Origin: Eledone cirrhosa
Lineage: Eukaryota
DNA length: 64,000 nt
Assembly (NCBI GenBank): GCA_964016885.1
Contig: OZ024751.1
Location: 15,252,001 to 15,316,000, forward strand
Direction of reading: 5' to 3'
Below, piece after piece: positions 12,765 through 55,602 of the stretch. Numbering within the stretch: position 1 is the stretch's first letter; every line of letters starts with the position of its first letter. A model generated the notes under the pieces. It was not told the origin of the DNA, did no database searches, and saw only the letters and a list, made by a program, of their open reading frames with translations. A program made the translations under genes and the position numbers.

Positions 12765-12904
12765 GATGAAAGTTGGTTGATCAAATAATCTACCGACATT
12801 TTCGTAAACAGCTGTAAAGCACTCAACGATTTGTATTCCTTTGGATTTTCTGTAAGGTATCAACCGGAGTTTTAATATAATAAATAAGAGAGACGGTTTT
12901 ATCA
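12765..12904 (-). mobile_element. short TA-inserted element, 3' end of the hammerhead-element class
   Basis: (TA)n on both sides; minus strand ACTCCGG...TTGAGTGCT motif shared with 15710-15750 and 54912-54963. Confidence 0.55.
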
Positions 12905-13920
12905 TATATATATATATATATCGTCATTGGGGCAGACGGCTAAAAGAAGCCGGAGTATGTAGTATGCTTGTTGTGTCAGTGAGTGTAGAAGGTGATGAAA
13001 GAAAGGAAGAAAGATCTGTGATGCTTCAAAGAACTAAAACATACCAACAGATTGTTCCTGTTGCAATAAGTCTTGATGGTGACGTGCTCAGCTGCAATGC
13101 TTAGCAACTTTTGATGTAGCTAATCTTGTACATCCTCCCACACAGAACACCACACTGCACTACATCCACCTTACACCTCCCCCCGTTCTCTCTCTCTCTC
13201 TCTATATATATATATATATCTAAACTATAATAATATATATAATATATTTAAATAGTTCTCTCTTTTTTACCACCACTATATTTACTCTACATTATTCTCA
13301 TAAAATAATCTTTCACTACTTATATATTATAATGCAATACACATTGTAAATTTAGACAGCCGGTATGTATTAAGTGGCTATATACTTTAAACTGTTCATC
13401 TAGTAGATCTCCCTCTCTCTCTATATACGTACGTATATACACAATATATATATATATTATATGTGCGTGAATATATTTCCTGACGAGGAACTGAGTGGAT
13501 ACAAATATTTAAACTCTACATCTGTGTATGTATTGAATACTTTATTAAAAAATGGTCTTAGTTTAATAACTGAGAATTACACCCCCCCCCTTCTTGAGAG
13601 AGAGTGTATGTATGTGTGGGTATGTTAGTGTCTATATTTATTACCTCTGTGTTAGTCCATTCTCTCAACCACCACCACGTCTCGTCAGCATTCTCACACA
13701 AAGGTAAACATTTCCACCACACACCTCATTAACGCAGGCTCTCAGACACATATACTTCCTAGTGTGACCCACAAACATCCACATTATGCCTTATGACATA
13801 CAGAGTAGATGGAGGTTGTCCAGCTGCGATTTCTTTCACGCTTTGACTTCAATATCTACCTCCCACTCTGCGCGCGCGCGCACACACACTCACGCGCACA
13901 CACACATTATATATATATAT

Positions 13921-14116
13921 AATAGAAATGATTTCTACAGGACTAGAACTGTTTCATTCGTAAGAAATCATCAGGACTTTCCTGTTGATTTCTTACAAAT
14001 GAAACAGCTCTAGTCCTGTAGAAGTCATTTCAATTATAAAATGAATATGCCTATACTCTTCTAGCGTAATGAGTACCTTGTTTAACAGTGGTTTCCTCAC
14101 GATTTTCATCGGGATT
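13921..14116 (+). mobile_element. TA-inserted fold-back element with hammerhead motif in each arm
   Basis: Inverted arms ~13922-13976 / ~13980-14034; + arm GACTTTC-CTGTTGA-stemII-GAAA-CAG..CTG-TA-GAAGTC; - arm retains CTGATGA. Confidence 0.7.
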
Positions 14117-14303
14117 ATATATATGTATATATATATGGGTCTGGAAACGTTGATAAATTATGAACGTGAGAACTCTTTGATTCGAATGAACGGAATTGTT
14201 TAGGTCTTAAAAATGAAACATGAAAGTAGTCGTGTTTTCAACAACATATGTATAAAAGAAGGGCTGTTCTCCATACTGCTATATATATATATATATATAT
14301 ATA

Positions 14304-14433
14304 TAACGAAGGAATTGTGGTAAGGAACCAGATGGACCATAACGCACCAAAGTACTCAATACTTAGGGTAGTAGAGTGGGTAATAGGAACAAGTATGACC
14401 CCAACGGCAGAGCTCAAGCCATTTCGACGGCTA
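14304..14433 (-). mobile_element. copy of the 15240-15369 element (3' half of hammerhead plus tail)
   Basis: Reverse-complement match to 15241-15369 with scattered substitutions; abuts (TA)n. Confidence 0.8.
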
Positions 14434-14459
14434 TTTCACACACCTATCTATATATAGAT

Positions 14460-14828
14460 ATATTTCTTTATTTACCATAAAGGCATAAAAAGAAGGGACA
14501 AATACAAAGGGGGCGTTTACATACAATTGAGTAAAAAGGGTATAAAATGAAAATAATCGAAAATAACCTCAAAAGGGAGGGGACGTGATGGGGGTTGCAC
14601 ACACCCCCGAAAAAGTGTGCAATCCTTTGCTCCGGGAGCACATGGAGAAGGTGCTCCCCTCTCCTTTACTTCTTTACCTACAGGATGGTATACAGAGAAG
14701 GCCCATTTACACGAGCCATTCTCGCCACTATCACCCACCTTTCATAAAACTGCCTGTGGCCAAGCACCTCTCTCTCCATTCTTATCCTTCTTCCGAAGTG
14801 ATATCGGAAGAAGTAGACCAGACTTTAT
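14460..14828 (-). mobile_element. 3' end of Tx1/L1-clade LINE in TA/GATA microsatellite
   Basis: Minus strand LVYFFRYHFGRRIRMEREVLGHRQFYERWVIVARMARVNG...*, pyrimidine-rich 3' UTR ending AATAAAGAAA. Confidence 0.65.
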
Positions 14829-15176
14829 CTATATATATATAGATAGATAGATAGATAGTTGTGTGGATAATTTTTTATATAGCGTCCCACCTATATCCCC
14901 CTAAATATAGCTACCTACTACCCACCCTTTCTCAGTGTCTACTTCTCTTTCACACACACACAATGTATATATATATATATATATATATATATATATATAT
15001 ATATATATATATATATATATATATATATATACACATCATGGTTATTAAAATAATGCTTTCCAAGAAAGTTCTAAAACGAAATCGGAAGATAGTGTCATAT
15101 CCAGATACTTCAATGTGGGCAACTTTTGCATATCTAACAGTAACACACACACACACACACACACACATATATATAT

Positions 15177-54268: not shown

Positions 54269-54365
54269 ATATATTTATGTAAAAGGTAACCAGAAATAAC
54301 AACACAATCGGTACAGTATATGGAAGGTATATATTAGGTTAACGCTTGATATAGCAGGAAGCGGG

Positions 54366-54401
54366 TCTTAATGTTTCGGACGCTAGTCCTTCATCAGAAG
54401 A
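54366..54401 (-). ncRNA. minimal hammerhead-like motif in element ~54272-54550
   Basis: TCTT-CTGATGA-A-GGAC(TAGC)GTCC-GAAA-CATT-AAGA; extra A after core, rudimentary stem III. Confidence 0.65.
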
Positions 54402-55018
54402 AAGAATGAGAAATAAGATAAATTGAGGGGACGGGCGGGTTGGAATTGGAAAAATGTCTTTAGATAAAAATAACAGGTCCATTCATGTTGACATCTCTTG
54501 CAAAACTGTTGATGTTGTTGTTTTGTGTATGATTTATGTTTTAGAAAAGTATATAATCATCATCATTGTTTAACATCCATTCTTCTATGCTAGCATGGAA
54601 GAATGGACATAAAATGGTGATGATAAACGTTGATTGCCAAATAAATTAACTATGGAGATATAAAAAATACAGAAGCGAAAACCAACCAAACAGTGAGTGT
54701 GTTCTGTTAGTATTTCTGGCAATATTATTACAACAATATGACTCTCCTCAAGTATAACAATATATATATATATATATATATATATATATATATATATATA
54801 TATATATATATATATATATATATATATTGCTTCAAGCAAACTTTAACACCCTCATATATATATATATATATATTTTGAGTTTATGTTGGTTGTATACCAA
54901 CACCTCAGTATGCAGGCTGGAGCACTCGACGAAGTGCGCAGGTTGGTTTGGTTACTCCGGAGTAGTGTAAAATAAAGTTAAATAAAAGTCAAATGATTAA
55001 AATTTAGCTTCGTTTATT

Positions 55019-55073
55019 ACTGCTATATATATTTCAGTGACAGCCATCTTTGGCTGTGACCTCTTCAGGCAGT
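55019..55073 (-). ncRNA. minimal type I hammerhead ribozyme
   Basis: ACTGC-CTGAAGA-GGTCACAGCCA(AAGA)TGGCTGTCACT-GAAA-TATATAT-A-GCAGT. Confidence 0.88.
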
Positions 55074-55295
55074 TTGAATTAGTATGGTATAGACAAGTAC
55101 ATATGTTGTTTAGGTGTATGATATTGTCAATACTCTGATATGCCCAGTTCCTTGTTGGGTTGTTAATTCACTGGGGAACTATGACTCCAGTTCCCCAGTG
55201 AATTAACAACCCAACAAGGAACTGGGCATATCAGAGTATTGACAATATCATACACCTAAACAACATATGTACTTGTCTATACCATACTAATTCAA

Positions 55296-55350
55296 ACTGC
55301 CTGAAGAGGTCACAGCCAAAGATGGCTGTCACTGAAATATATATAGCAGT
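55296..55350 (+). ncRNA. minimal type I hammerhead ribozyme (inverted copy)
   Basis: Same sequence as 55019-55073 on the opposite strand. Confidence 0.88.
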
Positions 55351-55602
55351 AATAAACGAAGCTAAATTTTAATCATTTGACTTTTATTTAACTTTATTTT
55401 ATATATATATATATATATATATATATATATGGGGTAACAAGTTTTTGTTATAGGTAATCCAGTTAGAGGTTGTGAATACTCCATATTGTGGATAGTTTTA
55501 GCATACAACGTTGACTCAACAAGAGGTTTCCTTAGGTAGCGAGTATATAAGTTCTCGGGAGTCCCTATGTAAGTTAATCTTGGAGTAATAATAGGGAAAG
55601 GG

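Follow-up and report, generated by a model that had tools for sequence, protein, structure and literature searches.

A doubled bulged hairpin at the copy ends of Hydra-clade Penelope-like elements in Eledone cirrhosa

We analyzed short repeats lying beside (TA)n arrays in a 64,000-nt stretch of the Eledone cirrhosa genome (assembly GCA_964016885.1, contig OZ024751.1, positions 15,252,001 to 15,316,000; hereafter the window). Many of them carry a small bulged hairpin, and those that could be followed into coding sequence are Penelope-like elements (PLEs) of the Hydra clade. Full-length copies can have the hairpin twice, as H1 and H2, the first and second hairpin between the hammerhead ribozyme and the start codon. 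Copies end mostly 4–8 nt before one of the two: before H1 when they are tail-less, which usually also means inverted, and before H2 when they are tailed. From this arrangement we consider it rather probable that the doubled hairpin is an RNA signal bound by the element's reverse transcriptase (RT) to begin copying a few bases upstream. How the start of copying is chosen and why the tail is present on one side only are open questions for PLEs, and the only in vitro study so far narrowed the start signal to 172 nt; a small, doubled, covarying hairpin at both copy ends offers exact mutations to test.

The window is part of a 3.0-Gb animal genome rich in (TA)n arrays. Together with 171 ten-kb stretches at preset positions (labeled L) it makes up a sample of 1.77 Mb. 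The hairpin register was fixed before L151–L210 (600 kb) were fetched, and these serve as a later test set.

Hairpin structure and its position at copy ends

A preliminary description of the window had marked ten 6-mers of the type GAGT(G/A)(C/T) or GAATAC, which it took as the 3' half of a stem. All ten were found, at most 3 nt from the positions claimed. The motif is in fact the 3' strand of a bulged hairpin composed of RCTC, a family-specific inner stem, a loop ranging from a few nt to ~60 nt, two bulged nucleotides (T, then T, C or A), and GAGYRCT. The distinction matters for the claim that the motif follows the element ends, which holds for the full hairpin and hardly at all for the bare 6-mer. 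Over 1,050 flank clusters, GA[GA]T[AG][CT] gave 52 and 57 matches in the 21–60 nt bins compared with 26–45 in other bins, and on the opposite strand there were 50–58 matches per bin at 21–80 nt. The hairpin descriptor, which has 123 matches in the whole sample, matched the later-fetched 600 kb 48 times, against 2–4 times in five shuffles, and 34 of the 48 matches lay 30–95 nt before a TA array (background, 6.4%). The full hairpin is therefore real, far above chance. Its distance to the TA junction had been described as near-fixed but ranges from 34 to 95 nt across families; the feature held constant is the short gap from the copy end to the next hairpin downstream.

Pairing was assessed by anchored counts because MAFFT did not place the 5' anchors of the hairpins correctly. 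A set of 24 clusters was selected on the two anchors and on distance alone, with likely chance singletons kept. At a bulge of 2 nt, 57% of the first three inner pairs in this set were Watson-Crick, compared with 18–25% at other bulge lengths and 32% with shuffled partners (none of 20,000 shuffles reached 57%); 17 of these clusters had a bulge of T followed by T, C or A. When 20 clusters were chosen with no demand for pairing, the outer pair was A-T in 8, G-C in 7 and otherwise in 5, and the inner pair C-G in 10, T-A in 7 and otherwise in 3. Fisher p values, which ignore the relatedness of clusters, were 0.0014 for the outer pair (16 clusters) and 0.00025 for the inner pair (18 clusters). The inner pair was also kept in 14 of 14 hairpins picked by eye, not blind. 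In a tree of the endonuclease the families are deeply split, with 10 of 18 inner branches open, and independent changes cannot be counted on it. Of the conserved cis-acting RNA structure proposed earlier, a hairpin with compensatory changes thus stands, and the register originally drawn, the pseudoknot and the 3'-terminal place do not.

Copy ends were mapped on four full-length leaders up to the start of the TA array. After exclusion of 11 that matched an internal TA run, 61 of 72 ends fell 3–11 nt before H1 or H2. The family of site 54924, whose loci were chosen by family searches, switches to TA ~4 nt before H1 in 28 of 78 contexts and 7 nt before H2 in 32 of 63, while 18 of the 63 read on. 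An unbiased sample of 101 tailed hairpins included 51 with an inverted match within 5 kb; according to the individual rows, 47 of these partners stop before H1, 3 enter H1 and 1 enters other sequence (a script had scored 50 as tail-less). The gap between the inverted partner and H1 was most often 4–5 nt (23/50). The end is 6 nt before H1 in L247 and L250, and ~9 nt before it in L248. TA-like bases blur each copy end by 1–4 nt.

We also checked whether the hairpin is helix III of the hammerhead and rejected this identity: the hairpins lie 50–120 nt behind the hammerhead and have no flanking core (GAA, CUGANGA, cleavable H). As a separate observation, helix III of three published Hydra hammerheads (PMC8557442, File S2) reads ACTC-N-GAGT, which is the outer stem of the hairpin. 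A common origin of the two is possible.

Carrier elements and their leaders

The carriers had been regarded as otherwise unrelated. However, every carrier traced to an open reading frame (ORF) is a Hydra-clade PLE, and hammerhead-bearing families behind the other endonuclease type lack the motif. Some copies extend upstream into an endonuclease and RT frame. Translations of L059, L041 and L065 contain an RT with, at its C terminus, a GIY-YIG endonuclease in a single ORF; L214 and L219 have open frames of 893–894 aa, with RWK and with DKT in place of DKG (R and W are invariant in alignment A1). A CxCx5C linker is present and CCHH absent in the translations of L030, L059, L041 and L065, whereas elements of the L069 type combine CCHH with a CX4CxxC linker. 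The carriers also have a hammerhead, for which cleavage is predicted, and insertion into (TA)n. RWK, DKT, CxCx5C and the absence of CCHH are marks of the Hydra clade in section 11 of PMC8557442, and we assign the elements to it on these grounds; Neptune was set aside on the same clade features. Likeness of the proteins to Hydra-1_Obim was judged by eye and would suggest a cephalopod host. None of five PLE proteins was matched by Pfam, and the family assignment thus comes from motifs. The L059 element, at ~4.2 kb with a long 3' region, departs from the clade's tendency to be "generally <3 kb" (PMC8557442), and the H1–H2 spacing of 76–113 nt seen here differs from the 30–40 nt tail given there.

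Behind CCHH-type endonucleases the motif was near the junction at 0 of 19 ends. Behind Hydra-type endonucleases it lay 43–57 nt before the read end at 8 of 35, many of the others being tail-less or cut short. The ACTC form was present in most members of 4 of 25 clusters with a sense hammerhead 100–260 nt upstream and of 24 of 1,315 clusters in the class without one, which includes true members since the hammerhead pattern misses degenerate copies. We conclude that the hairpin is a feature of Hydra and not general to PLEs.

Past the tailed end, full-length L059 continues with the second hairpin and then the start codon. Both hairpins are found in five families (L059, L156, L084, L061/L263 and L252), with H2 lying 38–111 nt before the start codon. 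In these full-length copies the hairpin is doubled in the leader before the start codon and not terminal. Both hairpins recur in the marine contigs L241, L242 and L245, whose protein is ~35–41% identical. Hydra consensus sequences from coral and sea cucumber in PMC8557442 themselves contain the hairpin. By eye, the sea-cucumber consensus Hydra-1_Ajap starts with both hairpins, with differing 5-bp inner stems; Hydra-2_Ajap and Hydra-2_Amil have H1 close to their 3' ends; Hydra-1_Crog and Hydra-1_Obim have variant forms only.

Two further hairpin types were seen. In marine Hydra elements an additional RCTC...GAGT hairpin, the third and without a bulge, lies ~25 nt behind the hammerhead (L242:320-340, L245:2218-2240, L248:3156-3176), and its closing pair alternates between T-A and A-T. 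A Hydra family with a 1-nt bulge and a 4-bp inner stem (L068:9300-9400, L119:4830-4860) has tail-less copies that still stop 4–8 nt upstream.

A candidate RT-docking signal and its alternatives

A role in RT recognition appears likely from the positional correlation of the hairpins with copy ends. The Hydra protein would bind the stem and its T-H bulge on sense RNA, and its endonuclease would nick a (TA)n target; cDNA synthesis would then begin inside a longer RNA, just 5' of the bound hairpin, where TA-like bases near the start may shift it by 1–3 nt. More speculatively, two protein units, one per hairpin, would prime on opposite target strands and so produce a fold-back in which only one of the arms is tailed, the tail being the H1-to-H2 interval. 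Two internal starts set by hairpins would explain the one-sided tail. We propose only tentatively, as the less probable part of the scheme, that the duplicated RT-docking hairpin loads two polymerases on one RNA, each starting ~6 nt upstream on opposite nicked strands, so that one-sided tail and fold-back would arise in one step. For a Poseidon element, RT has been reported to begin at two internal sites that bound the tail, and both strands are nicked and extended, with a dimer predicted (PMC11167929).

The same end map fits a model in which the hairpins direct RNA cutting 5–7 nt upstream, by a host nuclease or an element protein, and RT starts from the new 3' ends as in long interspersed elements (LINEs). 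Such downstream signals exist: the 3' box of small nuclear RNA genes sets the RNA 3' end. We nevertheless regard cutting as unlikely. A cut before H1 would be expected to strip both hairpins from the template and leave no signal, and the main Poseidon product was unmoved by longer 3' extensions, which points to an internal start (PMC11167929). It is similarly unlikely that the hairpin works at the DNA level, being recognized by the GIY-YIG endonuclease in single-stranded cDNA or donor DNA so that the intermediate is trimmed nearby, even though Craig et al. (2021) attribute the tail to endonuclease-mediated resolution (PMC8557442) and the tail is required for recognition by the Penelope endonuclease, as cited in PMC11167929. 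Since H2 lies beyond every tailed cDNA, it must have been present in the template, and the flanking pair on the sense strand (T-G in 10 and C-A in 2 of 20 clusters) weakly favors sense RNA. The internal starts of Poseidon (PMC11167929) make internal initiation likelier than either RNA cleavage or trimming of DNA.

That the hairpins serve translation or hammerhead folding, with ends set only by TA-like microhomology just upstream, seems quite improbable. H2 does lie close before the start codon, and the AT-rich bases before both hairpins share 0–4 nt with the TA target; yet leaders have many other AT-rich stretches while 61 of 72 ends precede a hairpin, and the gap is kept although the spacing of the hairpins varies. 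We give very little credence to the form first described, in which one 3'-terminal stem or an H-type pseudoknot keeps a fixed distance to the RNA end. An additional 4-bp pairing is possible in two copies, but across 32 non-redundant hairpins pairing of the loop with downstream sequence was no better than with shuffled partners (140 of 500 shuffles were as high), and the GGAA/GGAG bases in question form the 5' strand of the inner stem. Moreover, distances to the junction vary, and element sequence runs past it: full-length copies read on into the ORF by way of the second hairpin. Coincidental occurrence of a short motif accounts for the bare 6-mer and for site 54695; for the full hairpin it is refuted by the counts in the later test set (48 against 2–4, 34 of them at the predicted place against ~6%), and as a general explanation it is of negligible probability.

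Several observations weigh against an RT-docking signal or narrow its reach. Only 4 of 25 hammerhead clusters have the motif in most members, so it is no general PLE mechanism. Among 12 leaders fetched by protein match alone, a strict descriptor found both hairpins in 2, one in 3 and none in 7; TA runs, absent start codons, truncation or decay account for several of the latter, but not clearly for L255 and L261, where a start codon is present and the descriptor finds nothing. In one family the bulge is 1 nt instead of 2 nt long. The gap is inexact, being 4–6 nt at H1 and 7–8 nt at H2 in the 54924 family and mostly 11–14 nt, against the reference used, in the 14071 family. Sense RNA and antisense DNA are only weakly resolved, and the covariation is uncorrected for relatedness, the backbone of the endonuclease tree being unresolved.

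Small, often bulged stems that guide template choice by RT are familiar from the 3' stem-loops of stringent LINEs, hepadnavirus epsilon and the telomerase RNA elements bound by telomerase RT. LINE stems sit within the 3' end that is copied, and in epsilon the bulge serves as template; in contrast, the hairpin described here is doubled and lies downstream of the start, beyond the part that is copied. Telomerase RT has its closest relatives in the RTs of PLEs, its sister group, and RNA contact in PLEs hence bears on telomerase origins. If the docking proposal is true, the hairpin would be the first RNA element defined as positioning the template in this sister group and a portable ~25-nt tag for inserting RNA into (TA)n. 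In annotation, the hairpin marks non-coding Hydra stumps.

The elements, their hammerheads, fold-backs and tail are already known (PMC8557442, PMC4209133, PMC3846280). The likeness to the Hydra clade of PMC8557442 extends to RWK, DKT, CxCx5C, GIY-YIG without CCHH, hammerhead and (TA)n insertion; the passages on the clade there contain no description of the hairpin, although the paper was not searched for that term. Poseidon_Ac (Frangieh et al., 2024, PMC11167929) similarly has two fixed ends in a read-through RNA behind a hammerhead, with the tail between them, but here the 5' leader contains both ends, and a copy of the same covarying hairpin follows closely on each. Inverted 5'-truncated pseudo-long terminal repeats (Arkhipova et al., 2013, PMC3846280) are likewise inserted as fold-backs in which one arm has a tail; that paper considers self-priming with an antisense strand as template, and its main text does not use "hairpin" or "stem". 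Non-LTR retrozymes (PMC7229834; bioRxiv 10.64898/2026.07.22.740005) are also short, hammerhead-bearing, PLE-related repeats, but form tandem arrays, whereas here truncated ends of coding elements occur singly or inverted. With no tandem hammerhead array in the window and copies running into an ORF, the identity as non-LTR retrozymes was rejected. No description of the hairpin was found in the literature searched, with most subscription papers, the bioRxiv supplements and figures S1B/S2C of PMC11167929 outside its scope, and it is apparently an undescribed cis element in a known clade.

The marked sites and other features of the window

All ten marked sites are in short elements beside TA arrays, several of which are fold-backs with hammerhead cores (Table 1).

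Table 1. Hairpins, fold-backs and associated features in the window (positions of the window; distance, marked 6-mer to TA junction)
Feature	Position	Strand	Marked 6-mer (distance)	Remarks
H1, long inner stem-loop	12818..12870	-	12821 (60 nt)	outer-pair probabilities 0.93–0.99; inner pairs 4/4; TT bulge
5'-truncated 140-nt element carrying this H1	12765-12905			between TA arrays
H1 register, decayed, one GAGT substitution	13513..13541	+	13535 (no TA array within 200 nt)	inner pairs 4/4; TT bulge; no relative in fetched DNA
Fold-back: inverted tail-less copy and sense copy	13918..14038	.		hammerhead core at 13974 (-)
Decayed H1	14055..14077	+	14071 (45 nt)	outer stem intact, bulge and inner stem altered; relatives with TT bulge and paired inner stem
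H1, most abundant family	14351..14377	-	14354 (52 nt)	inner pairs 4/4; relatives (L084) behind Hydra-type endonuclease
Fold-back arms	15177..15291	.		inverted copy ends 5 nt before H1
H1, 14354 family, one GAGT substitution	15297..15323	+	15317 (52 nt)
Fold-back arms	15408..15705	.		hammerhead core 15503 (-); inverted copy ends 4 nt before H1
H1, full fit, TA bulge	15710..15740	+	15734 (65 nt)	outer-pair probabilities 0.92–0.98; inner pairs 3/4
Possible decayed H1, doubtful	29462..29481	-	29465 (48 nt)	TT bulge; hammerhead core at 29564 (-)
GAGTGT, not hairpin	54695..54700	+	54695 (65 nt)	family behind non-Hydra (CCHH-type) endonuclease
H1, young family	54921..54963	-	54924 (54 nt)	full-length copies encode Hydra RT-endonuclease
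213-nt perfect fold-back	54968..55401	.		hammerhead cores 55068 (-), 55301 (+); inverted copy ends 4 nt before H1
Likely H1 of 55478 element	55511..55562	-	55478 (51 nt)	bulge and GAGT in 5/5 copies; 5' strand differs among relatives; hammerhead core 55634 (-)

The full bulged hairpin fits at four sites (12821, 14354, 15734 and 54924), and the element at 54924 has at least 40 identical copies in the genome. Sites 13535 and 15317 are decayed copies that keep the register, and 14071 is partly decayed. At 29465, three of four outer pairs, the bulge and a 6-nt gap to the end of the inverted copy are present, and the inner pair fails. The marked GAGT at 55478 is lost in three of four relatives, while an anchor at 55517 is conserved in all and ACTC lies at 55562; the hairpin of this element is most likely formed by 55562–55511, with another GAGT than the one marked. 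No tail-less copy of this family was among the matches listed. Site 54695 was rejected as a chance match, having no RCTC upstream and belonging to a family behind a non-Hydra endonuclease. That family and its relatives have two end classes ~60 nt apart, and another signal may act there because of this.

Rfam searches of the window returned no hammerhead among the matches listed (150 of 240), nearly all of which were repeat-driven microRNA models under gathering scores; four leaders gave no family at E<2 and two matches at E ~2.

Other ends were noted in the window. At 63380-63530 (+) a tail-less, L156-like hammerhead element ends at a TA array, and hammerhead-bearing or related ends without the hairpin are present at 54275-54420 (-) and 54560-54759 (+). 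An 82-nt palindromic insertion with CAG ends, presumably akin to a Tc1/mariner miniature element, lies between TA runs at 12647-12728. Non-LTR retrotransposon frames, which we take to be RTE-like and R2/R4-like, occupy 52117-53862 (+), 3786-4553 (-), 34615-35313 (-) and 5854-7463 (+), one of them open for 581 aa; in the sampled DNA, L043:4902-7933 has replication and helicase frames, presumably Helitron-like. The window further contains a satellite with strong G skew, in which a 32-nt unit is present in 116 copies (47383-51087), and tandem arrays of 48–49 nt units akin to a dispersed genome repeat (7946-8251 and 18558-19548).

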